Below are positions 1 to 31,340 of a stretch of 32,000 bases of DNA, piece by piece. The notes beneath the pieces were generated by a model that saw only the letters and a program-made list of their open reading frames with translations, had not been told where the DNA came from and made no database searches. Location: NCBI GenBank assembly GCA_016432445.1, contig CP066689.1, forward strand, positions 660,001-692,000. Reading direction: 5' to 3'. Every line of letters begins with the position of its first letter. Position 1 is the first letter of the stretch. This DNA is from Candidatus Saccharimonadota bacterium (lineage in GTDB: Bacteria > Patescibacteriota > Microgenomatia > UBA1406 > GWC2-37-13). Made by a program: the position numbers and the translations under genes.

Positions 1-2
1 TT

Positions 3-1298
3 GAATTATTAAATCTCCTCGACAATCTTAAACCTTTTTCTTACAAACTAGTAGAAAAAATATTTATTGAAGAATTAGGCGCAACTCCCAATAAAATCTT
101 CAAGACATTTGAGAGTGAACCTTTTGCATCTGCTTCTTTTGGACAAGTGCATGGAGCTAAACTTAAAGATGGCACTGTTGTAGTTGTCAAAGTGTTAAGA
201 CCTGGAGTTGAATCAAAAGCGAAAATTGATTTTTTGGTTGTTGATTTTCTTGCTTTTATCGCAGATCTCTTTTTCAAGATAGAAGCTTTACCTTGGAAAG
301 AGTTTGCTAAAGAGTTTAAACAATGGACAAAGCAAGAGTTTGATTATCGGATTGAAGCTTCAAATGGTGAAAGACTTTACAATAATAATGTTAAAAATTC
401 AAGCATTGTTATACCCAAGATCTATCATCATCTGACGACAAAAAAAATATTAGTTGAAGAATATATGGAAGGACTTCATTTAAGCCGAGTTCTTAAAAGG
501 TTAAGAGATGGAAGGCTAGACGAAAAAAAACTAAAAAAATTAGGAATTGATTTAAAAAAAGTCCCAAGGATTCTTGTTTCTGAACTTCTTAAACAGTTTT
601 TTATCGACGGTTTTTTTCATGCTGACCCTCACCCTGGAAATATAATTCTTCTTCAAAACGGTAAAATCGGACTTATTGATTTTGGTATCGTAGGCGGTAA
701 AGATCCAATGCCCAATATTGATCATTTTATGAAATGGGCTAAAGCCACAGGAGATATGAACTTTGAGGATGCTGCTTTTCATGCTGCAAATTATGCTGGA
801 GAAGACATAAAAGTAATGATAAGAAGCGCTCTGCCTGCAACTGTTGATCAAAAAGATATTGATGAGTTTACGCATTTACTGGCAGATAATTATGTACAAA
901 CAGCTAAACATATAATCACTGACAATCTGGAAAATTTAAAGACTTTAAAAAGAGATTACATGACAGTATTTTTACAAGTTATTAAAGCAGGTAATAAATA
1001 TAATGGCAAAGTGCCAAAAGAATTTGTAATTCTAAGCAGAGGTCTCGCTGTTCTTGGTCTTATGGCAAAACTCATGGATAGCGATTTTCGCATTACAGAA
1101 GAACTGAAAAGCTTTTTTCAAACTTACCCGGAAGTAGAACTATTAAAAAATTATGTACCGCCTGCAATTAAAAGAATAAATCGGGAGGTAGCAATAGAGC
1201 GATTAACAAACTGGTTATCATCTCTCTTTGAGGTCGATCCTCAGCTTTATCATCTTGTACAAAAATATTTAAGAAAGTACAATATAGTTGAAACTTAA
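3..1298 (+). CDS. ABC1/UbiB-family atypical protein kinase, 5' end outside the window
   Basis: The frame is open from nt 3. Nt 3-146 translate to ELLNLLDNLKPF...FASASFGQVHGAK, an ABC1 N-lobe motif, so the GTG at 147 in the ORF track is internal. FFHADPHPGNIIL and LIDFG kinase-like motifs follow. Confidence 0.85.
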   Translation, partial: ELLNLLDNLKPFSYKLVEKIFIEELGATPNKIFKTFESEPFASASFGQVHGAKLKDGTVVVVKVLRPGVESKAKIDFLVVDFLAFIADLFFKIEALPWKEFAKEFKQWTKQEFDYRIEASNGERLYNNNVKNSSIVIPKIYHHLTTKKILVEEYMEGLHLSRVLKRLRDGRLDEKKLKKLGIDLKKVPRILVSELLKQFFIDGFFHADPHPGNIILLQNGKIGLIDFGIVGGKDPMPNIDHFMKWAKATGDMNFEDAAFHAANYAGEDIKVMIRSALPATVDQKDIDEFTHLLADNYVQTAKHIITDNLENLKTLKRDYMTVFLQVIKAGNKYNGKVPKEFVILSRGLAVLGLMAKLMDSDFRITEELKSFFQTYPEVELLKNYVPPAIKRINREVAIERLTNWLSSLFEVDPQLYHLVQKYLRKYNIVET

Positions 1299-1301
1299 AC
1301 T

Positions 1302-1490
1302 ATGTTAGATAAATTTTTGAATTTTTATACAAAGTATCCGTGGGTTGCAATTATTATACTAGCTCAGTGGTTTGCGACAACCTATATCATCATCAACACA
1401 AATGCTAGTGACAAAACCACCATAATGGGAATAACATTTTTATCAACGGTGCTCTATGCCTATTTTGGCTTCAAAGCTCCCAAAGGATAA
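1302..1490 (+). CDS. small hypothetical membrane protein (two hydrophobic segments)
   Basis: 62-aa ORF starting 3 nt after the kinase stop, with two hydrophobic stretches (WVAIIILAQWFATTYIII, IMGITFLSTVLYAYFGF). No recognisable family. Confidence 0.45.
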   Translation: MLDKFLNFYTKYPWVAIIILAQWFATTYIIINTNASDKTTIMGITFLSTVLYAYFGFKAPKG

Positions 1491-1506
1491 ATTGCTGTTA
1501 ATTAAG

Positions 1507-1535
1507 TTGAAAAAAACTATGTTTAATGTTATAAT
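1507..1535 (+). promoter_or_regulatory. sigma70-type promoter TTGAAA-17 nt-TATAAT
   Basis: TTGAAA at 1507-1512, a 17-nt spacer, then TATAAT at 1530-1535. It lies directly upstream of the Thr-rich leader ORF. Confidence 0.6.
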
Positions 1536-1545
1536 GTATCTGGAA

Positions 1546-1593
1546 ATGAGAAAAATATCAAGTTACGAAACCACTACAACTACTTTCTCCTAA
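1546..1593 (+). CDS. putative thrS leader peptide MRKISSYETTTTTFS (five consecutive Thr codons)
   Basis: ATG at 1546. Codons 1570-1584 are ACC ACT ACA ACT ACT. The TAA stop at 1591-1593 lies in the loop of the first hairpin. The ORF is absent from the ORF track because it is under 60 aa. Confidence 0.6.
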   Translation: MRKISSYETTTTTFS

Positions 1594-1646
1594 AAGGAGG
1601 GTTAGTGATGTGGTATACATTAATCCTCCGAATAGGAGGTTTTTTT
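1586..1646 (+). promoter_or_regulatory. transcription attenuator with mutually exclusive hairpins (1:2, 2:3, 3:4)
   Basis: UCUCC 1586-1590 pairs with GGAGG 1596-1600. GGAGGGUUA 1596-1604 pairs with UAAUCCUCC 1621-1629. CCUCC 1625-1629 pairs with GGAGG 1635-1639. Confidence 0.55.
1625..1646 (+). terminator. intrinsic terminator of the thrS leader
   Basis: CCTCC-gaata-GGAGG hairpin followed by seven T (1640-1646), 40 nt upstream of the thrS ATG. Confidence 0.6.
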
Positions 1647-1685
1647 ATACCTTAAAATTAATTAATAGTTATATATAATAAAAAA

Positions 1686-3473
1686 ATGGAACAAAAGGAA
1701 GAATTAAAAAAAATGAGACATTCTTGCGAGCACGTCTTGCATCAAGCCATGGTGGAACTTTTCCCTGGCTTAAAAAGAGCCATGGGGCCAGCGACAGATG
1801 AGGGATTTTATCTTGATTTCGATTATGACGGAAGAATTTCCGAAGAAGATTTTCCTAAAATTGAAAAAAGGATGCAAGAACTTATAAAAGCCAATTTACC
1901 TATTGTCCGCCAAGAGATCTCTATTGAAAAAGCCAGAGAAATGTTTAAAAATAATCCGTATAAACTGGACTGGGTTGACCAAATTGAAAAAAAAGGTGAA
2001 AAAGCTATTGTTTATTGGAATGGAGAACCCGAAAAAGAAGGCTCAGATGTAGATCTTTGTAAAGGTCCTCATGTAGAATCTACTGCAAAGGTGGGTCATT
2101 TTAAACTTCTTTCTATTGCCGGCGCCTACTGGCACGGCAATGAAAAAAATAAAATGTTAACAAGAATTTACGGTACTTGTTTTCAAACTAAAGAAGAACT
2201 AGATAAATATCTATGGCAGATTGAGGAAGCAAAAAAAAGAGACCACCGAAAACTCGGTCAAGATCTGGAACTTTTTACCACATCTAATGAAGTTGGCTCG
2301 GGACTGATTTTATGGCTGCCCAAAGGAACTGTTGTTAAAGAAGAACTTGAAAAATTAGGAAAAAAGACAGAAAGCAGAGAAAATTATTTAAGAGTATCAA
2401 CTCCCCATATAGCCAAAGATTCGCTTTATTATCTTTCCGGCCATTTGCCTTATTATGCTGCAGATATGTATCCGCCAATGAAAGCCGAAGACGGAACTTA
2501 TTACCTTAAACCGATGAATTGCCCTCATATGCACATGATTTATTCATCTAAGAAACATTCGTATAAAGAACTCCCAATAAGATACGCTGAATTTGGCACA
2601 GTCTATAGATACGAAGACAGCGGTACTCTACAAGGACTTTTAAGAGTAAGAGGCATGACCCAAAATGACGCTCATATTTACTGCACTGAAGAACAAGCCC
2701 TTAGTGAATTAACCAAAGTTATGAAACTCCACGATTATTACTATAAAATATTTGGTCTAAAAGATTATTACATTGAATTGGCTCTGCCGGACTTTGAAAA
2801 AAAGAAAGATAAATACTTTGATAATCCTCAAGCGTGGGAAAAATCAATAAACATATTAAGAGAAGCAGCCAAGCAATTAAACGTGGAAGTGGTTGAAAAT
2901 GTAGGAGGAGCCGCTTTTTACGGGCCAAAATTCGATTTTAATGTTAGAAGCGTTACAGGAAAAGAGTTTGGCGCTTCCACCAATCAACTTGATTTTGGAT
3001 CAGGAGAAAGATTCAATCTCAATTATACAGATAATGACGGATCTGAAAAAATTGTTCCTTATATTATTCATAGAGCACCACTTGGATCAGATGAAAGATT
3101 TATAGGCTTTTTAATTGAACATTTTGCCGGAGCTTTTCCTTTGTGGTTAGCCCCAACTCAAATTAAAATCTTACCTATATCTGAAAAGCATTTGGAGTTT
3201 GCTAAAAAAGTAAATTCTATCTTAGTTGAACAAGATATAAGAAGCGAGGTTGATGAGAAAAATACGACGGTCGGACATAAGATTAGAGAATCTACATTGC
3301 AAAAAATCCCTTATATGGTTATAATAGGAGATAAAGAAATTTCTTCATCGGAAAATTCTGGCAGAAAAAAGTTAATTATCTCAGTCAGAAGTAGAGAAGG
3401 TGAAGATCTAGGTCAAATAAATATTTATGAGTTTGTTGACAAATTAAAGGCAAAAATTGAGAACTACGAATAA
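1686..3473 (+). CDS. thrS: threonyl-tRNA synthetase (no N-terminal TGS domain)
   Basis: HSCEHVLH (HxxxH editing-domain motif) lies at residues 12-19. Class II core segments are present (YRYEDSGTLQGLLRVRGMTQNDAHIY) with a C-terminal anticodon-binding domain. The gene sits in conserved thrS-infC-rpmI-rplT-pheST synteny. Confidence 0.95.
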   Translation: MEQKEELKKMRHSCEHVLHQAMVELFPGLKRAMGPATDEGFYLDFDYDGRISEEDFPKIEKRMQELIKANLPIVRQEISIEKAREMFKNNPYKLDWVDQIEKKGEKAIVYWNGEPEKEGSDVDLCKGPHVESTAKVGHFKLLSIAGAYWHGNEKNKMLTRIYGTCFQTKEELDKYLWQIEEAKKRDHRKLGQDLELFTTSNEVGSGLILWLPKGTVVKEELEKLGKKTESRENYLRVSTPHIAKDSLYYLSGHLPYYAADMYPPMKAEDGTYYLKPMNCPHMHMIYSSKKHSYKELPIRYAEFGTVYRYEDSGTLQGLLRVRGMTQNDAHIYCTEEQALSELTKVMKLHDYYYKIFGLKDYYIELALPDFEKKKDKYFDNPQAWEKSINILREAAKQLNVEVVENVGGAAFYGPKFDFNVRSVTGKEFGASTNQLDFGSGERFNLNYTDNDGSEKIVPYIIHRAPLGSDERFIGFLIEHFAGAFPLWLAPTQIKILPISEKHLEFAKKVNSILVEQDIRSEVDEKNTTVGHKIRESTLQKIPYMVIIGDKEISSSENSGRKKLIISVRSREGEDLGQINIYEFVDKLKAKIENYE

Positions 3474-3990
3474 ACGGACATCTCAAAGAAAATTTTATTA
3501 TCTTAATCAGAATATTCCAGCTAATTCTCTGAGAGTTGTTGATTACGAAAGCAAGCAGGTTGGAATATTGGATAAAGCGGAAGCGCTAAGACAAGCTCAG
3601 GAAGCAGAATTGGATCTAGTATTAATTGCGCCAAACGCAAAGCCGCCTGTCGCAAAAATTATTGACTTTAGAAAATTTCTTTATCAGGAAAAGAAAAAGG
3701 AACAGGAAGCTAAAAAAGGAATTAAGAAAAGCTCAGTTAAAGATATCAGTTTATCTTTATTTATCGCTGACTCAGATTTACAGCGGTTTGTAGAAAAAGG
3801 TAAAGAATTTCTCGATGAAGGCAATCAGTTAAGATTAAATCTGGCTTTAAAAGGAAGAGAAATGGGAAAAGTACCTATGGGCTATGAACGAATTAAAAAA
3901 TTTATAGCCGAACTTGGAGAAGTAACCATAGCCAAAGAACCAAGACTTGAAGGCAGAGTCATCCGGGCAGTAATATTTAGAAAAAAATAA
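3457..3990 (+). CDS. infC: translation initiation factor IF-3
   Basis: LDLVLIAPNAKPPVAKIIDFRKFLYQEKKK and the C-domain pattern LKGREMG are present. The longest in-frame start is TTG at 3457, overlapping thrS by 17 nt. There is no in-frame ATG near the expected N-terminus. Confidence 0.9.
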   Translation: MRTTNKRTSQRKFYYLNQNIPANSLRVVDYESKQVGILDKAEALRQAQEAELDLVLIAPNAKPPVAKIIDFRKFLYQEKKKEQEAKKGIKKSSVKDISLSLFIADSDLQRFVEKGKEFLDEGNQLRLNLALKGREMGKVPMGYERIKKFIAELGEVTIAKEPRLEGRVIRAVIFRKK

Positions 3991-3991
3991 T

Positions 3992-4186
3992 ATGGGAAAA
4001 CAGAGAACTAGAAAGGCAGCTCTTAAAAGATTTAAGATAACCAAAAACGGTAAAGTATTGCACCGTTCACATTATATTAGACATCTTAGATCAAAAAAAG
4101 GTAAATCTCAGTTAAGAAGGCTCAAAAAAATGAAAACAGTCGAAGGAGTCTTTAAGAAAAAAATAAAGAAGATGGTAGGAAAGTAA
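3992..4186 (+). CDS. rpmI: ribosomal protein L35
   Basis: 64-aa basic protein, MGKQRTRKAALKRFKITKNGKVLHRSH.., starting 1 nt after the infC stop. Confidence 0.93.
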   Translation: MGKQRTRKAALKRFKITKNGKVLHRSHYIRHLRSKKGKSQLRRLKKMKTVEGVFKKKIKKMVGK

Positions 4187-4206
4187 TTATTAAGTTCAGG
4201 ATGAAT

Positions 4207-4260
4207 GGTTAAGGGCTAAGAGTTAAAACCCTAAAACCCTCAACCCTTAAACTCTAAAAC
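4207..4260. repeat. intergenic inverted heptad-word element (GGTTAAG GGCTAAG AGTTAAA / ACCCTAA AACCCTC AACCCTT AAACTCT)
   Basis: Three tandem 7-mers are followed by four roughly complementary 7-mers. TTAAGGG (4209-4215) pairs with CCCTTAA (4244-4250), and AGAGTT (4219-4224) pairs with AACTCT (4250-4255). It is related to the element at 12777-12819. Confidence 0.6.
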
Positions 4261-4265
4261 TAAAT

Positions 4266-4610
4266 ATGGTTAGAATAAAAGGCGGAACAACAACTAGAGC
4301 AAAACATAAAAAAACTCTAAAATTAGCCAAAGGCTATTGGATGACTCGAAGCAAGCATATTAAAAAAGCTAAAGAGGCGGTACTTCATGCGGGGGAGTAC
4401 GCTTTTGCAGGAAGAAAAAGAAAGAGGCGAGATTTTAGAGAACTATGGATTATAAGATTAAACGCCGCAGTCCGTCAGTCTGGATTAACCTACAGTCAGT
4501 TTGTAAACAAACTTAAAACTAAAAATATTGCTCTCGACAGAAAAGTTTTAGCTCAAATTGCGGTTGAGTATCCTAAAGCTTTTGAAAAGATAGTGGAAAA
4601 AGTGAAATGA
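4266..4610 (+). CDS. rplT: ribosomal protein L20
   Basis: [16 protein letters not shown]...[17 protein letters not shown] is a typical L20 sequence. Confidence 0.95.
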
Positions 4611-4629
4611 ACTTCGTATAATCTAAGTC

Positions 4630-5625
4630 ATGGACGATCCGGGAAAACTTTTAGACAATCTCCGTGACAAACTTAATAATGTTAAATCTTCTACCGATAT
4701 TGAAAACCTTCGCATTGAGTTCTTGGGCAGAAATGGATTAGTTAATCAGCTCTTGCAAAAAATTAAAGACGTCGCTCCAGATCAAAAGAAAGAATACGGA
4801 CAAAAAGTCAACACACTAAAATCTCAAATAGAAGAATTACTTCAAGACGAAGAAAAAGAGTTTAAACAAACAACTACATTAAATATTGATATCACTTTAC
4901 CTGGAATCAAACCCAAAGTGGGCAACCTTCATCCAACAACAATAGTCATAAGAAAAATCAATCAGTTCTTCCGTTATTTAGGCTACAGCGTTTACGAAGG
5001 CCCAGAGATTGAAACCAATGAATTTAACTTTGAAAAATTAAATCTCCCAAAAGACCATCCAGCTCGAGAACTTGCCGACACTCTTTATATACAAGAACCC
5101 GAATATCTTTTAAGAACTCATACCTCTTCTGTTGAAACAAGAGCTATGACCCAGGAAAAACTTCCATTAAGGATTGTTGTTCCTGGTAAGGTTTACCGAA
5201 ACGAAACCTCAAATCCTACCAATAATTCCATGTTTTATCAGTATGAAGGACTTATTGTTGATAAAAATATAAGTATGGCTGATTTAAAAGGTACTCTTAT
5301 TGCTTTCGTAAAGTTTCTTTATGGACAAGAAACAAAAACCAGATTCAGATGTAAATATTATCCTCAGGTTGAACCTGGTGCAGGACTTGATGTAGAATGC
5401 AAGTTTTGTCAGGGAAAAGGATGCTCAGTATGTAAATATCGCGGCTTTATTGAGGTCTTAGGTTCAGGTATGGTTCATCCTAACGTTTTAAAAAATTGCG
5501 GTATTGATCCAAAAGTTTGGTCAGGATTTGCTTTTGGTATGGGTCTAGACCGTTTAGTAATGCTTCAATATGGAATTAATGATATTAGAAAACTTTATAG
5601 CGGGGAACTAGTTTATAAAATATGA
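4630..5625 (+). CDS. pheS: phenylalanyl-tRNA synthetase alpha subunit
   Basis: DHPARELADTLY, the CKFCQGKGCSVCKYRGFIEVLGSGMVHPNVL zinc-knuckle segment and GFAFGMGLDRLVML are present. Confidence 0.95.
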   Translation: MDDPGKLLDNLRDKLNNVKSSTDIENLRIEFLGRNGLVNQLLQKIKDVAPDQKKEYGQKVNTLKSQIEELLQDEEKEFKQTTTLNIDITLPGIKPKVGNLHPTTIVIRKINQFFRYLGYSVYEGPEIETNEFNFEKLNLPKDHPARELADTLYIQEPEYLLRTHTSSVETRAMTQEKLPLRIVVPGKVYRNETSNPTNNSMFYQYEGLIVDKNISMADLKGTLIAFVKFLYGQETKTRFRCKYYPQVEPGAGLDVECKFCQGKGCSVCKYRGFIEVLGSGMVHPNVLKNCGIDPKVWSGFAFGMGLDRLVMLQYGINDIRKLYSGELVYKI

Positions 5626-7505
5626 AATTACCAATAAACTGGCTTAAAGAGTACGTCAAAGTCGATAATCCTCAAGAATTGATTGAGAAAATGACCTCAA
5701 TCGGTCATATGCAGGATGGCTCTCCAAAAAATGTAAATGGAGATATTGTTTATGATCTGGAGATACGTCAAAATAGACCGGATTGTTTATCTATCATTGG
5801 CTTGGCAAGAGAAGCTGCCGCAATTTTAAATAAAAAATTAAAAAATCCTCTAAATGAGTTTTCTGAAATAAATATTCATGACAAAAAAATAGATGTAACT
5901 ATTGACGATCCGTCACTTTGTTATCGTTTTAAAACATTCGTTATTGAAGGAATAAAAATTCAACCTTCGCCAGATTGGTTAGTAAATAAATTAATCGCTT
6001 ACGGAATTAAGCCTATTAATAATATAATTGATATAACAAATTATGTAATGGTTGAAGTTGGAGAACCTCTTCATGCTTTTGATATCAGAGACATTACAGA
6101 AAACAAAATAATTATTCGCAGAGCCAAAAAAGGGGAGTCAATTATAGTTATCGGTGGAAAGAAAGTAGCTCTTACGGAAGATGACCTACTGGTAACTGAT
6201 CCTCAAAAACCGCTTGGACTTGCCGGCATAATTGGGGGCGATAAAACCGGAGTAAAAAATGACACAACAACTATTGTTTTGGAAGGCGCAACCTACAATC
6301 AAGCCACAATCAGAAGATCATCAATAAGACATTCTTTACGTACTGAAGCTTCAACTAGGCATGAAAAATTCCTTCACCCTCATTTGGCAGAAATGGGATT
6401 AAGAAGAGCTGTTCAGTTAATTGAAAAGCTAGCTGGTGGAAAAGTTACAGGTCAAACTGATTGTTATCCCACTCCTGAAAAAGATATCTCAATAGCGGTA
6501 AGTTTGGAAAACATTAATAAAACTGGAGGAATTAATATTGATGTTAAAAAGTCTGTTAATATTTTAAAGTCTTTAGAAATAGATACGGAAGATGAATCAA
6601 ACGGTACAATCTCAACCAAAGTTCCTTATTTTAGAACTGATCTTATTCAGGAAGCAGACATAGTTGAAGAAGTTCTTAGACTTTTTGGTTATGATAATAT
6701 TCCTGAGCGCCTTCCTTCACTGCCTCCGCCAAAATACATTCAATCAAAAACTTATGATTTAGAGGAAGAAATAAGAGATATTCTGGTCGCATGCGGTTTT
6801 GATGAAGAAATAACTGAACCGTTAACTAATGAGGAAAATCCTGCATTAAATCCGGTTAAACTGGAAAACTCATTAAGCAGTGAAAAAATAATGCTCCGTA
6901 CTACTTTAAAAGAAAGTTTGCTTAAAGCATTTGGTGAACAGCAAAAACACAGAAAAAATGTTATTGAAGTTTTTGAAGTCGGAAAAATTTATTTTATGGA
7001 GAGTGAAGAATATAAAGAACAAAGAATTGTTGGAGGAATAAGTTCTTATAAAGATAATTCATATACCCACTTAAAAGGTGTTATTGAGCTTTTGTTTGCA
7101 AAATTAGGTTATGAATATAATGAGAATGTTATAACAATTGAACCAATTAATAATAATAGTTTTTTCTTCCAGATAAATATTGATCAGTTATTATCAGGGA
7201 AAAAAGTCACAACTCAAAAAGTTTTAACTTCACCACCTCAACTAAACCTTCAGGATATATCAATTGTTGTCGAAAAAGCAGTGCCGGTTGGAAATATTGT
7301 TGGTGAATTAAAAGATATATCTCCTTTAGTTTATTCTGTTTCCTTGGGTGAAGAACCTCAAATGATCAATGAAAATGAAAAAAGTGTTTTCCTACATATT
7401 GCTTTCAGCTCTCCTGATAAAACTTTAACAAATGAAGACGTTGAACCTATAAGAGAAAGCATTATTCAACTTCTTAAAGATAAACATCACGCTAGATTAA
7501 GATAA
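5622..7505 (+). CDS. pheT: phenylalanyl-tRNA synthetase beta subunit (short form lacking the OB-fold tRNA-binding domain)
   Basis: The start overlaps the pheS stop (ATGA). MKLPINWLKEY (B1) is followed almost directly by LEIRQNRPDCLSIIGLAREAAA. B3/B4, B5 and C-terminal anticodon-binding-like regions are present. Length is 627 aa. Confidence 0.9.
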   Translation: MKLPINWLKEYVKVDNPQELIEKMTSIGHMQDGSPKNVNGDIVYDLEIRQNRPDCLSIIGLAREAAAILNKKLKNPLNEFSEINIHDKKIDVTIDDPSLCYRFKTFVIEGIKIQPSPDWLVNKLIAYGIKPINNIIDITNYVMVEVGEPLHAFDIRDITENKIIIRRAKKGESIIVIGGKKVALTEDDLLVTDPQKPLGLAGIIGGDKTGVKNDTTTIVLEGATYNQATIRRSSIRHSLRTEASTRHEKFLHPHLAEMGLRRAVQLIEKLAGGKVTGQTDCYPTPEKDISIAVSLENINKTGGINIDVKKSVNILKSLEIDTEDESNGTISTKVPYFRTDLIQEADIVEEVLRLFGYDNIPERLPSLPPPKYIQSKTYDLEEEIRDILVACGFDEEITEPLTNEENPALNPVKLENSLSSEKIMLRTTLKESLLKAFGEQQKHRKNVIEVFEVGKIYFMESEEYKEQRIVGGISSYKDNSYTHLKGVIELLFAKLGYEYNENVITIEPINNNSFFFQINIDQLLSGKKVTTQKVLTSPPQLNLQDISIVVEKAVPVGNIVGELKDISPLVYSVSLGEEPQMINENEKSVFLHIAFSSPDKTLTNEDVEPIRESIIQLLKDKHHARLR

Positions 7506-7577
7506 ACTCATATAAATACTTAATTTTGTTGTTTATAATCCATTGTTTATCTAATCTTCACTTACTAAAATAGTTTT

Positions 7578-7895
7578 ATGTTAACTAAGGACGATTTATT
7601 GCAAATTAAAGAACTCATAGTTGAAGTCGTTCAAACTGAGACCAGAAGAATTGTAAAGGAAGAACTTGAACCTTTTAGAAAAAGTGAAGATGTTCAATTT
7701 ACAAAAATTAATGAGCGTTTTGATAAAATTGATAGGCATTTTAAAAGAATTGATTCTAAATTCTACAAAGTAGATGCTACTTTTAGGAAAGTTGGCAGAA
7801 GTATAAATATTGTAATTAAGGGATTTGATACAACATACCTAGATCTAGAAAAGAGAGTGAGTTCTATAGAAAATCATAGAAATCTTATTCCATAA
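7578..7895 (+). CDS. hypothetical coiled-coil protein with 7-residue repeats
   Basis: 105-aa ORF preceded by TTGTTT-17-TAAAAT-6 nt-ATG. It contains an internal repeat ERFDKID RHFKRID SKFYKVD ATFRKVG. Confidence 0.6.
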   Translation: MLTKDDLLQIKELIVEVVQTETRRIVKEELEPFRKSEDVQFTKINERFDKIDRHFKRIDSKFYKVDATFRKVGRSINIVIKGFDTTYLDLEKRVSSIENHRNLIP

Positions 7896-7905
7896 TTTTG
7901 TCCAC

Positions 7906-7991
7906 AAAAAAAGCCCTAAGTGATTATCGTTGAAAATTGCGTGTTACGCAAGTGGGGAGCAACGTTGCTCCCCTGTGAAAACCACTAGGGC
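7906..7991 (-). terminator. compound (three-way-junction) intrinsic terminator of the minus-strand island operon
   Basis: On the minus strand GCCCUAGUG (7983-7991) pairs with CACUUAGGGC (7913-7922), followed by U7 (7906-7912). Enclosed are a perfect 8-bp hairpin GGGGAGCA-ACGT-TGCTCCCC (7954-7973) and TGCGT-gtt-ACGCA (7938-7950). Confidence 0.55.
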
Positions 7992-8029
7992 TGGATTACG
8001 CACGTCATTGTGCGCTTCGCGGAAAGCCT

Positions 8030-27178: not shown

Positions 27179-29152
27179 ATGATCAAAAAGAGTTTAGGGT
27201 ATATAGTATTATTGATCGTAGGATTTATACATATTGGATTGCAATCAAAAAGCATCGTTGGCGGAGATGGAGGTGACTTGGTTGCCTCAGCGTTCATAAA
27301 TGGTATTCCGCATGCGCCAGGATATCCTTTATATACATTCTTAGGCTCATTACTTTTAAAACTTGAACTTGTAACGCCTGCTTGGCTAATGAATTTCTTG
27401 TCCTCAATCCCTGCAATCCTACAGCGTCTTATTCTATTCTTTCTGATTTATAAACTTTCAAAGTCTTATCTTCATTCTTTCTCAGGAGTTTTAATATATT
27501 CTTTTTTGTACCCTTCATGGTTATTCGCGGAAATACCAGAAATTCAATCACTCAGCATGCTTTTTTTGACAGGCATATTTTATCTTGTTGTACTGTTTGA
27601 ACAAACCAAAAAAAAAGTTTATTTATATTTCCTCGCTGCAGTTTTTGGCTTTGCCTTTTTCCATAACTATCTTGTAATGTTGGTTATTCCCTCAGTTTTT
27701 GTTTATCTAAAAATAAAAAAAAACATCATCCTTATCAAGGATAACTATAAAACCTTAGTCATATTGTTTTTCACTGGATTGTTGCCTTATCTTTATGCTA
27801 TTTTCGCTTCTTTAAGATATCCGCCCATCGATAATAACCATGCAGCAAGTTTGGACGGATTTGTTTCTCTTGCTACAAGAGCATCTTATGGTTCATTCCG
27901 TCTTTCAAACGATATTTATTTTAATATAAACAATGCTTACTTAAGCGTTTTAAACTTATTTAACTTCATCAGAATTGATTTCAAGATTATTGGAATCATT
28001 TTGATGGCTTTAGGATTTTTTTACCTTCGGAAAAATAATAAAAAACTGTTTTTATTTTTGATAATTAATCTGGTAAGTATAATCATATTTTTTGCTTATG
28101 CTAGTTTTCCCACAACCTTGCCTTTACACTGGGGTATATTTGAAAAATATCTTTTGGTGCCATATTTTTATCTAACAATATTGGTGGTGTTTGGCTTTCT
28201 CTTTCTATTTAAAAAAATACCTGAGATTATTACCAATCCCTTTCTTCAAAAAACTTCGCTTTTAGTTGTAGTTATTGCTGCTTTTTTTTATCCGGTCATA
28301 TTATTTTCTAACAATTATAAAAGAATCTATGTCTTGAAAAATGACTTTACTGCCGAAAATTTGGGAAAGGATCTCCTAAACAGCGTCCCTAAAGACGGTA
28401 TTTTAAACTTGAATGACGATACAGGATACTATAATACCATTTATTCTCAATACGCATTAAAAGTCAGACCTGATGTGAAAATAGTTATGTTTGGAAAACT
28501 AAAAGATAAATATTATCGAGAATACTTGGTGAGAAATTACCCAGAGATTTATCTTCCGGATGTAGAAAAACTTGGGGAAGATTTTGGTTACAAATTTCTT
28601 GAGGAGAATTCCAGGAAATTCGCTATCCTAAGCAGCAAACCTACTTTAAAACCAGAAGTCTGGCTACCACATGGTCTCTTATGGAGATATTACCCAAGTT
28701 ATCAAAAATTACCTGAACCTAATCAGCTGATTTCTCAAAATTTTATACTGTGGAAAAAATATCATTCTCCATTAGCCGGCTCCCTAAGCCGCTATCAAAC
28801 ATTACTGCTTTCAGATGTTTTGAGAATATATGCCTTTGGGCATCAAAGCTTCGGAATGATGCTTTATAGGAACAAACAGTACAGATTAGCTGAAAATGAG
28901 TATAAAGTTGCATTAAACTACCTTCCTGAAGCAATAGACAATCACATTAATCTAACCAAAACCTATATCGATTCAAATCAATGCTCAAAAGCAGAGACAG
29001 TTTTGAATCAGGCAGAGAAGTTTTTCAAAAAAGATAAAAAAATTTATAAAAACTACATTGACCTTTACGCCAACTGTTTTAAAGATGAAGAGAAGGCAAG
29101 CGGTTATATAAAAATTTTCGAAAAATTAAAAGAAGAATCGTCGTTATTATAA
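27179..29152 (+). CDS. DUF2723/TMEM260-like GT-C-fold membrane glycosyltransferase with C-terminal TPR
   Basis: The first loop GGDGGDLVASAFINGIPHAPGYPLY resembles the DUF2723 signature. There are more than 10 hydrophobic segments and a soluble TPR-like C-terminal region. Confidence 0.6.
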   Translation: MIKKSLGYIVLLIVGFIHIGLQSKSIVGGDGGDLVASAFINGIPHAPGYPLYTFLGSLLLKLELVTPAWLMNFLSSIPAILQRLILFFLIYKLSKSYLHSFSGVLIYSFLYPSWLFAEIPEIQSLSMLFLTGIFYLVVLFEQTKKKVYLYFLAAVFGFAFFHNYLVMLVIPSVFVYLKIKKNIILIKDNYKTLVILFFTGLLPYLYAIFASLRYPPIDNNHAASLDGFVSLATRASYGSFRLSNDIYFNINNAYLSVLNLFNFIRIDFKIIGIILMALGFFYLRKNNKKLFLFLIINLVSIIIFFAYASFPTTLPLHWGIFEKYLLVPYFYLTILVVFGFLFLFKKIPEIITNPFLQKTSLLVVVIAAFFYPVILFSNNYKRIYVLKNDFTAENLGKDLLNSVPKDGILNLNDDTGYYNTIYSQYALKVRPDVKIVMFGKLKDKYYREYLVRNYPEIYLPDVEKLGEDFGYKFLEENSRKFAILSSKPTLKPEVWLPHGLLWRYYPSYQKLPEPNQLISQNFILWKKYHSPLAGSLSRYQTLLLSDVLRIYAFGHQSFGMMLYRNKQYRLAENEYKVALNYLPEAIDNHINLTKTYIDSNQCSKAETVLNQAEKFFKKDKKIYKNYIDLYANCFKDEEKASGYIKIFEKLKEESSLL

Positions 29153-31340
29153 TTAAATAAACAATACTCCGTATTAAAATAGTATATCTAAGTATAGGAA
29201 AATCATATTCTAGCTTTACTATGTGTTTTCCCTGCGGCACAAGAACTGATTGCATCTTCCAATTAGTCCTATAGATATTTGTATTTTCACCGTCTACGAA
29301 GGCTTTCCAATGTAGAGAAAATGAACGATTGAAAACCAAAAGCTTTGGTCTAGCCGTGCTACTAACGATTTCTATTTGTGTGGGCTCGTTCTTTCTAACA
29401 ATTAACTCCTTTTTCAAGCCTCTTTCTATGGAGATTCCCTTACTTAATTTACTATCACTTTCCACCAATGCCACGTCGTTTCCTATATCAGACATTAAAT
29501 CCTTGAATTCATCAGTATTACTATAACTTTTAATATCTTTTGCAAAGTAAATATCGCTATGACCATTATTAAACTTGTATATTTTATAAGTCATTCCTAA
29601 TTTATTATTTTTTGGAGTTTCGTAAACCTTAGCTAACTTTTCCGTAGATACTTGGTCGAGTACATAAGGTGTAATAATATAATTAACTCCTGCCATTTCT
29701 AAAAAAGAAAGCGATCTATTTGAAAGAGTAACCTTCAAATCAGTATATTTAATCCCATCATTAATTAACGAAAGGAAATAATAATCATCTTTACTGGAAA
29801 AAAAAGATGATGTAAAAGTTTGAACTGAAGGAATTTTATAAATTAGATTCAATTTAGGATCAATCGAGTTTTGAAGGAATTTATACACATTAATATCATC
29901 CCACCCCTTCTTTGTAAAATAATCGAGCCAGATGTAATTCAAACCCAGAGAAAAATATTTATTGTCGTTTGTTTTTTTTAAATAACTAACTGTATGCGGT
30001 TCTTCAATCCAGCTTTTATATTCGACAATCGGATGATAATTAAAAAAATTTAGAAATAGATCAAATACAGTTATTGATATGACTAAAAAAGGCAGAAAAG
30101 GAAGTTTTTTTTTAATTATTTTTTTTGTTTTTAAATCTTTGAATGCAAAACCTGCCATGAGACTAACGAAAATAACAACCACTACCATAAATCGTGTCGG
30201 TCCCCTAAATAAGCTAAATGGAAACATGTATGAAATTAAATAGAAAGGTGAATTTTTTCCAAGAGCAAGAACAAAAAAAAATACAATTAAAATTGTAATT
30301 AACTTCATGAATTTATTTTTTTTCAAAACAAACAACGAATAAACAAACAGTAGAAACGGCAATATTCCAATATATAAATTACTCTCCCAAAAAATATCAC
30401 CATCAACCCCGTTTGTGACGTAACTGCCATTTTTAGGACTACCAAAAATATAAGGATTAATGAATGTTAATAAGTTTCTGATAGGAAAAGAAGGAAATAG
30501 ACTATTTAAAGAATTTAATCTGCTATTTCTCACCGAATTAAGAAACAAATCACCTACCGAAACAATTTCAGGTAAAGACAGAATGAAAAAAAGGATTAGC
30601 GATCCAATCATGTTCCATATAGTGAATGAATCAACTTTTCTTAGTTTTAATATTCTTGAGATTAGAACATAAACCAGCAGTGCCACAAAAGTAATGAAAG
30701 TCAATTGAAACTGACCGTTGGAAAATTGAAGATTGAGTAATATAACGAGAATCAAAGACATTGTAATCTTTTTTACTTTATTTTCTGCAATGATTACCGT
30801 ATCTAAAACAAACATTATTAAGGGGATGTAGGCTATGTTTTGCAATAAAGTATAATGGGAAATTTTAAAAATCATTAGGCCTGAAAACATAAATGTAATG
30901 GCACTAAAAAATGATGAAATTCTATCTAGTTTCATTCTTCTTCCCACTAAAAATACCCCCACTCCAGCAATAAAAAAAGCCAAGACATAACCTAAATTAA
31001 AAGCAAAAGGCATTGGAAAAAACTTATAAATTAAATAATTTATTGGATTCAGGTAGGCAATTTGACCATCGGCCGTTAATGACATTCCATTAAGAAGCAG
31101 GTCTGTATATTCTTGAAATGTCGAATGCTTTAAACCGTCAGACAGAAAATATTTCTCAGCAAAGGTATAATGCCATAAATCAGATGTTTGAAAATCAGGA
31201 GTAACGATAACCTTTTGGCCAGAAATAAATAACTTATTGAAAAAGATTAACGATAAAACAAAAATAAGTAGTAAAATTAAGAAGGTTTTTAGACTAGTTT
31301 CTCTTTTTTTTACCATCTGCCAAATTGACATAGGTGACAT
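29079..31340 (-). CDS. large polytopic membrane protein, YfhO-like GT-C glycosyltransferase candidate
   Basis: 753 aa with many TM helices in the N-terminal two thirds, a large extracytoplasmic C-terminal domain and a final TM anchor. TATAAT lies 7 nt upstream of the ATG. The family call is tentative. Confidence 0.45.
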   Translation of the reverse strand: MSPMSIWQMVKKRETSLKTFLILLLIFVLSLIFFNKLFISGQKVIVTPDFQTSDLWHYTFAEKYFLSDGLKHSTFQEYTDLLLNGMSLTADGQIAYLNPINYLIYKFFPMPFAFNLGYVLAFFIAGVGVFLVGRRMKLDRISSFFSAITFMFSGLMIFKISHYTLLQNIAYIPLIMFVLDTVIIAENKVKKITMSLILVILLNLQFSNGQFQLTFITFVALLVYVLISRILKLRKVDSFTIWNMIGSLILFFILSLPEIVSVGDLFLNSVRNSRLNSLNSLFPSFPIRNLLTFINPYIFGSPKNGSYVTNGVDGDIFWESNLYIGILPFLLFVYSLFVLKKNKFMKLITILIVFFFVLALGKNSPFYLISYMFPFSLFRGPTRFMVVVVIFVSLMAGFAFKDLKTKKIIKKKLPFLPFLVISITVFDLFLNFFNYHPIVEYKSWIEEPHTVSYLKKTNDNKYFSLGLNYIWLDYFTKKGWDDINVYKFLQNSIDPKLNLIYKIPSVQTFTSSFFSSKDDYYFLSLINDGIKYTDLKVTLSNRSLSFLEMAGVNYIITPYVLDQVSTEKLAKVYETPKNNKLGMTYKIYKFNNGHSDIYFAKDIKSYSNTDEFKDLMSDIGNDVALVESDSKLSKGISIERGLKKELIVRKNEPTQIEIVSSTARPKLLVFNRSFSLHWKAFVDGENTNIYRTNWKMQSVLVPQGKHIVKLEYDFPILRYTILIRSIVYLIIITTILLLIFRKFLYNRLPSLHL

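Follow-up and report, generated by a model that had tools for sequence, protein, structure and literature searches.

How is thrS, the gene for threonyl-tRNA synthetase (ThrRS), controlled in bacteria of the Patescibacteria, or candidate phyla radiation (CPR)? The question is raised by a 32,000-nucleotide stretch of Candidatus Saccharimonadota DNA (contig CP066689.1, positions 660,001 to 692,000; the whole stretch is hereafter called the window), in which a short open reading frame (ORF) rich in Thr codons and a set of alternative RNA hairpins precede thrS. Comparative sequence analysis and RNA folding models indicate that this gene is quite probably controlled by a ribosome-mediated (leader-peptide) transcription attenuator. 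The argument draws on the elements themselves, their conservation and covariation across related loci, the match between leader codons and the synthetase encoded downstream, and the thermodynamic feasibility of the predicted conformers.

Leader ORF and alternative helices upstream of thrS

The features concerned all lie on the forward (+) strand and are as follows:

1507-1535, +: promoter P1, with a -35 element TTGAAA (1507-1512), a 17-nt spacer and an extended -10 element TGtTATAAT (1527-1535)
1546-1593, +: leader ORF of 15 codons plus TAA (1591-1593), encoding MRKISSYETTTTTFS
1570-1584, +: five Thr codons, ACC ACT ACA ACT ACT, the proposed sensor of charged tRNA-Thr
1570-1591, +: segment 1, the Thr codons plus UUCUCCU, which pairs with 1595-1614
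1595-1614, +: segment 2, AGGAGGG plus the anti-Thr-codon motif UUAGUGAUGUGGU, a partner of segment 1 or segment 3
1618-1629, +: segment 3, CAUUAAUCCUCC, forming the antiterminator with segment 2 and the terminator with segment 4
1635-1646, +: segment 4, GGAGG (1635-1639), with U7 (1640-1646), the 3' arm and U tract of the terminator
1652-1679, +: candidate promoter P2, with TTAAAA, a 16-nt spacer and TATAAT (1674-1679), 10 of 12 consensus matches
1686-3473, +: thrS, encoding a ThrRS of 595 aa with tRNA_SAD, class II core and anticodon-binding domains

P1 matches the consensus at 11 of 12 positions and additionally carries TG at 1527-1528, ahead of its -10 hexamer TATAAT (1530-1535); it is the best promoter match in positions 1-8000. 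A first-pass annotation had read here a TTGAAA-17-TATAAT promoter followed 10 nt later by a 15-codon ORF with five consecutive Thr codons and a stop at 1591, and the letters bear out each of these points. The leader ATG (1546) lies 10 nt past the -10 box, giving an expected 5' untranslated region of about 2-4 nt, and a -10-like hexamer is located 4-13 nt ahead of the leader start codon in all of the Thr leaders described below; since the start codon is so near the -10 box, the leader ORF is predicted to be leaderless or nearly so. Five successive ACN codons occur once in the window (0.02 expected). Upstream of thrS more widely, in-frame ACN runs are enriched, with runs of five or more present at four of 121 non-redundant loci for AC and at none for each of the other mixed dinucleotides. 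The reverse strand is uninformative as a control for such runs, because ACN runs return there as GTN runs.

Downstream of the Thr codons lie UCUCC (1586-1590), GGAGG (1596-1600), UAAUCCUCC (1621-1629), a second GGAGG (1635-1639) and T7 (1640-1646), all confirmed letter by letter. The terminator, CCUCC-GAAUA-GGAGG followed by U7 (1625-1646), is the cleanest hairpin and U-tract combination in the 28 kb scanned, and the pattern CCTCC-N3-8-GGAGGTTTTT (CCTCC, a loop, GGAGG and T5) has a single occurrence in the window against an expectation of zero. The pairing of segments 3 and 4 proposed in the first-pass annotation, CCUCC with GGAGG and then U7, was accordingly recovered where it had been placed and nowhere else in the window.

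Constrained folding gives three helices. Helix 1:2 joins 1585-1591 to 1595-1601, 1579-1582 to 1603-1606 and 1570-1574 to 1610-1614 (-16.8 kcal/mol); helix 2:3 joins 1596-1607 to 1618-1629 (12 bp, -16.6 kcal/mol); and helix 3:4 joins 1625-1629 to 1635-1639 (-8.4 kcal/mol). Helices 1:2 and 2:3 compete for 1596-1607 and helices 2:3 and 3:4 for 1625-1629, making the members of each pair mutually exclusive. Two of these helices had been drawn too short: the first-pass pairing of UCUCC with GGAGG is present within helix 1:2, but the helix is much longer and takes in the Thr codons, and the antiterminator pairing holds, but over 12 bp and not 9 bp. As helix 1:2 extends over them, the Thr codons lie inside segment 1, in the same way as the Trp codons in trpL.

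The consequences of a ribosome on the leader were modelled by minimum-energy folding with the A-site codon and 12 further nucleotides masked. When Thr codons 3-5 occupy the A site, helix 2:3 alone is predicted to form, leaving segment 4 unpaired; when the Phe, Ser or stop codon does so, the ribosome covers segment 2 and helix 3:4 is predicted instead. These folds of the window reproduce the logic first proposed for it, namely that stalling should promote the antiterminator, and arrival at the stop codon the terminator. The free leader RNA adopts a different minimum-energy fold, in which a helix 1:4 is nested around 2:3 (-26.8 kcal/mol). As this fold likewise ends at the U tract, untranslated RNA is predicted to terminate in either conformer, and the original reading needs amending to the extent that such RNA can terminate via 1:4 plus 2:3 as well as via 1:2 plus 3:4. 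The region 1540-1690 has a folding z score of -2.5.

The kinship with the trpL, thrL and pheM attenuators suggested in the first-pass annotation is supported, given that a short ORF, cognate codons, a terminator, mutually exclusive helices and, in the folding models, the appropriate stall geometry are all found in the window. In E. coli thrL, which precedes thrABC (RF00506), a run of Thr codons also senses charged tRNA-Thr through four-segment terminator and antiterminator logic, but it regulates threonine biosynthesis, not a synthetase, and mixes Thr with Ile codons. The thrL ORF is also translated from a leadered mRNA, whereas the window leader is predicted to be leaderless or nearly so.

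A second ORF (ORF2, 1608-1655) of 15 codons, encoding MWYTLILRIGGFFIP, runs through the terminator, with GGAGG 1596-1600 placed 7 nt upstream of its ATG (1608). It was rejected as a conserved coding feature, the equivalent frame in relatives spanning 2-25 codons, and its start codon probably arose incidentally from the GUG/AUG-rich motif that pairs with the Thr codons. Translation of ORF2, if it occurs, would disrupt both 2:3 and 3:4.

Thr and Phe leaders on a shared scaffold

Related leaders were sought in the 350 nt upstream of thrS at 160 loci and in eight contigs encoding the closest ThrRS proteins (loci are referred to by L numbers). A Thr-run mini-ORF in a layout like that of the window is present at L161 (MKIFRAVLTTTTTYL), whose ThrRS is 79% identical to that of the window, and at L165 (MKLNVFTLTTTTSS), L166 (MKINFIINCTTTISS), L007 (MNIDMIQNILTTTTYLL), L010 (MNLVTTTTTVAL) and L134 (MNLLTTTTTAN), with L093 (MSKIYFIITATIFS) a weaker case. 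Attenuators made of different sequences lie upstream of thrS at L114 (MYRVITTTTTTTTPLTR), L030 and L042/L147. Overall, Thr runs occur in at least ten related thrS leaders (L161, L165, L166, L007, L010, L134, L095, L167, L114 and L030), and the same four-segment hairpin set with a U6-8 terminator is found in L161 and at least eight further Patescibacteria loci. The mini-ORF peptides otherwise diverge, the Thr run being their sole conserved part; the proposal that related thrS upstream regions would share a Thr-run mini-ORF is borne out in this form. On the RNA side, a TAG..GTGG motif of segment 2 is conserved in six leaders, a conserved UAGUGUUGUGG-like motif 3' of GGAGG is the complement of the Thr codons, and pairing of the Thr codons with a GUAGUGUUGUGG-like sequence is also predicted in L161, L165, L166, L007 and L010. 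Segment 2 reads GGGGGAUUA in L161 and GGAGGGUUA in the window; segment 3 is identical in the two, and pairing is kept (A-U to G-U and G-U to A-U).

A covariance model (R1), built from six Thr leaders on the nested consensus predicted by RNAalifold, matches exactly one site in the window and recovers 19 elements across loci at E <= 0.02, all 19 of which have the hairpin and a U6-8 tract. In the alignment of these 19 elements, which is fitted to the model structure and consequently inflates the pairing figures, 88.9% of cells are paired (74% when shuffled; 50-64% with the partner slid), 13 of 15 pairs of the nested structure have changes on both sides (6.5 shuffled; 3-7 slid) and the covariation score is 0.458 (0.219 shuffled; 0.09-0.17 slid). 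Covariation thus backs helices 2:3 and 1:4, and the search for compensatory changes suggested in the first-pass annotation gave a positive answer for the nested structure. The segment cores also change together across loci, appearing as GGAGG/CCUCC, GGGAGC/GCUCCC, GCGGGG/CCCCGC and CGGGGG/CCCCCG; the cores were found automatically, and the output for L166 and L029 was unusable.

About half of the R1 matches are not at thrS but between rplT and pheS, where the mini-ORFs are Phe-rich (MKIKKITFSFFFTFA, MNRVYQKFFFFSFSS, MIFKKASFFQNFFFFRC, MPLSTSHLFFFFT and others). The four-segment scaffold and U tract are found in this gap at L001:6205-6301, L163:4114-4210, L029:5833-5947, L019:6158-6272, L122:4669-4783, L106:4156-4260, L104:2809-2959, L105:5411-5516, L144:2659-2752 and L141:3333-3391. 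Since one scaffold carries Phe-rich ORFs before pheS and Thr runs before thrS, the codon run follows the specificity of the downstream synthetase, and we regard this match, read from sequence, as the strongest single argument for function. Judged by their sequences, the elements between rplT and pheS look like the pheM-type attenuators of pheS(T). The E. coli pheM/pheST system similarly combines a short ORF of cognate codons, alternative hairpins and an intrinsic terminator to control a synthetase gene, and does so in the same gene neighbourhood: thrS is the first gene of a thrS-infC-rpmI-rplT-pheS-pheT series in the window, the order being that of E. coli, and the Phe-rich leaders of relatives sit exactly at the rplT-pheS junction. 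The window element differs from pheM in standing before thrS, in its Thr codons, in its leaderless or near-leaderless ORF and in having segments 1/3 and 2/4 that are near-repeats, which makes the nested 1:4 plus 2:3 fold possible. The rplT-pheS gap of the window itself is only 19 nt and contains neither such an element nor pheM.

These comparisons bear on the possibility that the unit bounded by P1 and the terminator is a small gene in its own right, encoding a small RNA of about 100 nt or a functional 15-aa peptide, that merely adjoins thrS. The unit does own a promoter and a terminator, and terminated leader RNAs act in trans elsewhere, as in the case of rnTrpL (PMC6614838). Against this, the peptide is not conserved outside the Thr run, the element is always followed directly by thrS, or by a small ORF and then thrS, and the codon run becomes Phe upstream of pheS; a role in trans would in any case add to attenuation and not replace it. 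An independent small gene is therefore a quite improbable account of the element.

Several other arrangements were observed around the thrS leaders. At L095 (1408-1516) and L167 (341-452), Thr leaders on the same scaffold (MNIISVNNQTTTTPAS and MNRNFSNNQTRTTSS) are followed by a conserved ORF of about 79 aa and then by thrS; this ORF has its own Shine-Dalgarno sequence and no Pfam hit on record, and may share the regulation of thrS. Another kind of Thr leader, ending in TTT(T)P-stop, TTTPMGL or TTTTPIRA, is found at the thrS genes of L002 (identical to L081), L006, L013, L137 and L168. It has a hairpin (for example ACCCC-N4-GGGGT) over the last Thr/Pro codons and the stop, with no clear U tract, and it may act through a stall at Pro-stop or by controlling translation. 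In many relatives a tRNA-Val(GAC) gene lies directly upstream of the thrS leader promoter (L007:2747-2821, L093:554-630, L134:488-564, L030:2690-2765, L110:2263-2339 and L137:2222-2296), preceded by tRNA-Asp in L007 and L093.

In the window, this position is taken by a 62-aa ORF (1302-1490), the upstream neighbour of P1 and the attenuator, and no tRNA gene was found anywhere in the window. The window is AT-rich (G+C about 33%). The best relatives of its ThrRS belong to Patescibacteria/CPR genomes (labelled WWE3, Microgenomates and Parcubacteria), with top identities of 65% in the genome and metagenome collections and 79% (L161) in the protein collection; no relative above 79% was found in any of these collections. 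A domain search of the protein gave no match to a TGS domain.

T-box-like leaders and known controls of synthetase genes

A leader that binds a protein or a tRNA directly would be a different solution: either a ThrRS operator that mimics the tRNA-Thr anticodon arm, as at E. coli thrS, or a T-box. The loop of helix 2:3 (U-GGU-A, 1611-1615) does resemble the anticodon loop of tRNA-Thr(GGU), and relatives have T-box-like leaders at thrS. However, the T-box model (RF00230) gave no match in the window even at E up to 10, no TGGNACC core is present within 300 nt upstream of thrS, and no Rfam family reached its gathering score in a scan of the whole window. Thr_leader (RF00506) was absent both at its gathering threshold and at E up to 10 over 1300-1800, and the scan of 1300-1800 at E up to 10 returned only noise and a sub-threshold match to Phe_leader. 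Phe_leader (RF01859) is the only family with any resemblance to the window (20.3 bits, E = 0.65, 1564-1649; gathering score 55, not reached), and it gave 24.1 bits (E = 0.034) on the Phe-type relative L104 against the same gathering score. T-box and riboswitch readings of the window were rejected on these grounds, the T-box covariance model having been proposed in the first-pass annotation as a negative control. The operator mimic was rejected likewise: the GGU-A of the loop is not conserved (GGC-A in L161, GGC-U in L007) and is explained by complementarity to the ACC codons, and no stable hairpin of the E. coli operator type was found in 1647-1685, which is almost wholly A/T and adjoins the thrS start. 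Direct binding of ThrRS or tRNA by this leader is accordingly extremely unlikely.

Among close relatives, a leader of 170-200 nt stands at the thrS position in L162 (73%), L164, L101, L082/83, L089/94/L004, L143 and L118. These T-box-like leaders carry CUC-ACC-A, with ACC as the specifier, and a (G)UGGAACC core, followed by a terminator; they were located at L164:666-773 and at about 300-490 in L162, and the thrS upstream region of L106 is listed with them. L164 matches the Rfam T-box at E = 0.001 with 23.6 bits, far under the gathering score of 93, and its stem I is very short; L162 on its own gave no match at E up to 5. The T-box-like designation of L162 and the other loci is thus based on sequence motifs and on the one sub-threshold match of L164, and Patescibacteria may have in these leaders a minimal variant of the T-box. 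No locus combines a T-box-like core with a Thr run, except for a single distant motif match in L130, judged spurious, and on a rough neighbour-joining tree of ThrRS the Thr-leader, T-box-like and no-regulator states are interleaved.

Compared with the B. subtilis thrS T-box, the window element has the same regulated gene, signal (charging of tRNA-Thr) and output (antitermination). It differs from both the T-box and the E. coli operator in that its sensor would be the translating ribosome and not the direct binding of tRNA or ThrRS. It shares the regulated gene with the E. coli translational operator, but has no anticodon-arm mimic at the thrS start.

Leader-peptide attenuators have been described or predicted at leuS and trpS in Streptomyces (PMC1262725) and at a hisS paralogue in bacilli (PMC2965389). 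In Streptomyces lividans, the leaderless mini-ORF pairs leuL2-leuS, trpL2-trpS, alaL-alaS and thrL-thrS were proposed from RNA-seq, with a ThrL (MKRVRPFLETTPGFVPAR) that has two Thr codons and for which the authors saw no clear Rho-independent terminator (PMC8079986). These actinobacterial systems resemble the window in placing leaderless mini-ORFs before synthetase genes, in one case thrS. Unlike S. lividans thrL-thrS, the window element has five Thr codons in a row, a canonical terminator, alternative helices that are conserved, and support from comparison with relatives; it belongs to another phylum, and the two share no sequence similarity. The suggestion in the first-pass annotation that a leader-peptide attenuator for thrS would be a distinct solution was thus too strong, given those described or predicted for pheST, leuS, trpS, the hisS paralogue and alaS and, weakly, for thrS in S. 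lividans (PMC1262725; PMC2965389; PMC8079986). For Patescibacteria/CPR, no description of a leader peptide, attenuation or a T-box was found in the literature, in a search that did not cover Lopatovskaya et al. 2010 (Mol Biol 44:128).

Promoter use, proposed mechanism and significance

The second TATAAT noted in the first-pass annotation, at 1674-1679, is present in the candidate promoter P2 and is conserved upstream of thrS in relatives. In the window it ends 6 nt upstream of the thrS ATG (1686); an exact TATAAT lies 6-8 nt 5' of this ATG in six of the seven window-type loci, with TATTAT in the seventh. P2 probably supplies basal thrS mRNA that is leaderless and escapes the attenuator. Shine-Dalgarno sequences are almost never present at window genes. 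Several window genes also have a TATAAT-like box, located about 5-8 nt ahead of the ATG (starts examined include 4630, 12754 (-), 29152-31340 (-) and 27179), a pattern that suggests widespread leaderless mRNAs, together with initiation without Shine-Dalgarno sequences inside operons, in this genome.

As starts appear to be leaderless and Shine-Dalgarno sequences are nearly absent, the GGAGG segments of the window are best read as stem elements and not as ribosome-binding sites. Relatives show a further arrangement: 10 of the 19 related elements have an ATG immediately after the U tract, 7-8 nt past the GGAGG of segment 4, where the window has ATA (sites include L161:198-246, L166:517-560, L095:1510-1545, L167:446-480, L001:6295-6330, L029:5941-5960 and L144:2746-2765). 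The tiny ORF (4-14 codons) that begins at this ATG ends beside or overlaps the start of the next gene; the L161 ORF shares the thrS frame, and its start was the one taken by the gene caller (607 aa). In the organisms with such an ATG, segment 4 may also serve as a ribosome-binding site.

Control at the level of translation, with the GGAGG sequences as Shine-Dalgarno sites that the folds hide or expose, for instance for ORF2 or for a start after the U tract, would draw on these ATG codons, on the in-frame case of L161 and on the spacing of GGAGG 1596-1600 ahead of the ATG at 1608. In the window, however, the ATA after the U tract is followed by a stop codon, Shine-Dalgarno sequences are nearly absent from its genes, the ORF2 frame varies in relatives as described, and a hairpin with an immediate U7 is the signature of transcription termination. 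Translational control by these sites is very unlikely here.

P2 is central to another alternative, namely that the hairpin is an ordinary terminator or insulator that ends transcripts of the 62-aa ORF and of P1, with P2 as essentially the sole source of thrS expression and no regulatory role for the Thr run or the alternative pairings. P2 is a good match, is placed for a leaderless thrS mRNA and is conserved, leaderless starts are apparently widespread in this genome, and the hairpin is the cleanest terminator in the window. Yet a strong promoter, P1, stands between the 62-aa ORF and the terminator, and a simple terminator leaves unexplained the Thr run within divergent peptides, the covarying helix 2:3, the Phe leaders before pheS and the mutual exclusion of Thr runs and T-box-like leaders. 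An insulating terminator of this kind is unlikely.

Set against the attenuator itself are several further points. P2 could supply most of thrS expression, leaving the attenuator a minor contributor. Besides the inflated pairing figures given above, column-wise counts of helices 1:2 and 3:4 are unusable whether the alignment comes from MAFFT or is fitted to the model, as stems that differ by 1 nt in length shift the register; these helices were assessed instead by per-sequence constrained folds. The 3:4 stem has only 5 bp and -8.4 kcal/mol. Masked-ribosome folds in relatives are mixed, with a narrow readthrough window in L007, an ambiguous result in L010 and none in L030. The duplex between the Thr run and its downstream complement only moderately beats shuffled sequences, 2 to 331 of 500 shuffles equalling it depending on the sequence, and the leader of L093, on the same scaffold, has only two Thr codons (T-A-T). 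The steps that we infer are where transcription starts, that the leader is translated, that ribosome and polymerase are coupled, and that termination and readthrough take place in vivo.

With these points weighed, ribosome-mediated attenuation at thrS would proceed as follows. Transcription from P1 would begin about 2-4 nt before the AUG of the 15-codon leader ORF, and the start being so close to this codon, a ribosome would load at the 5' end of the RNA and follow the polymerase. When charged tRNA-Thr is plentiful, the ribosome would reach the Phe, Ser and stop codons (1585-1593) and cover segment 2, leaving segments 3 and 4 to pair and transcription to end at U7 (1646). When charged tRNA-Thr is scarce, it would stall once Thr codons 3-5 reach the A site, covering segment 1; the 12-bp helix 2:3 would then form, the GGAGG of segment 4 would be single-stranded and the polymerase would read through into thrS-infC-rpmI-rplT-pheST. 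RNA that is not translated would also terminate, either as 1:2 plus 3:4 or as the nested 1:4 plus 2:3. P2 would probably provide the basal leaderless thrS mRNA, to which the attenuator adds an inducible share.

Taken across the related loci, the elements would, somewhat more probably than not, be versions of a modular attenuator cassette of Patescibacteria (CPR) acting on leaderless mRNA, in which a four-segment GGAGG/CCUCC scaffold is directed to different synthetase genes through a change of codon run, to Thr at thrS and to Phe at pheST, and is repeatedly exchanged during evolution with minimal T-box-like leaders. Annotation stands to gain from recognition of these elements, since gene callers extend the ThrRS of relatives into the leader region; P0001, for example, was called at 607 aa with a start just past the U tract. 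The leaderless leader ORF and the tandem arrangement of P1, attenuator and leaderless P2 would be amenable to in vitro work although the organisms are uncultured. As leader-peptide, T-box-like and unregulated versions of thrS occur in close relatives, the group would also offer a natural comparison of ribosome-based and T-box-based sensing of one tRNA. Two controls of thrS are established in the E. coli operator and the Bacillus T-box; the attenuator would constitute a third, comparatively well-supported one, and would extend classical leader-peptide attenuation to the Patescibacteria/CPR, in which gene regulation is almost unknown. Should the cassette hold true, thrS would have its first well-supported leader-peptide attenuator, and regulation dependent on coupled transcription and translation would for the first time be evidenced in these reduced, uncultured bacteria.

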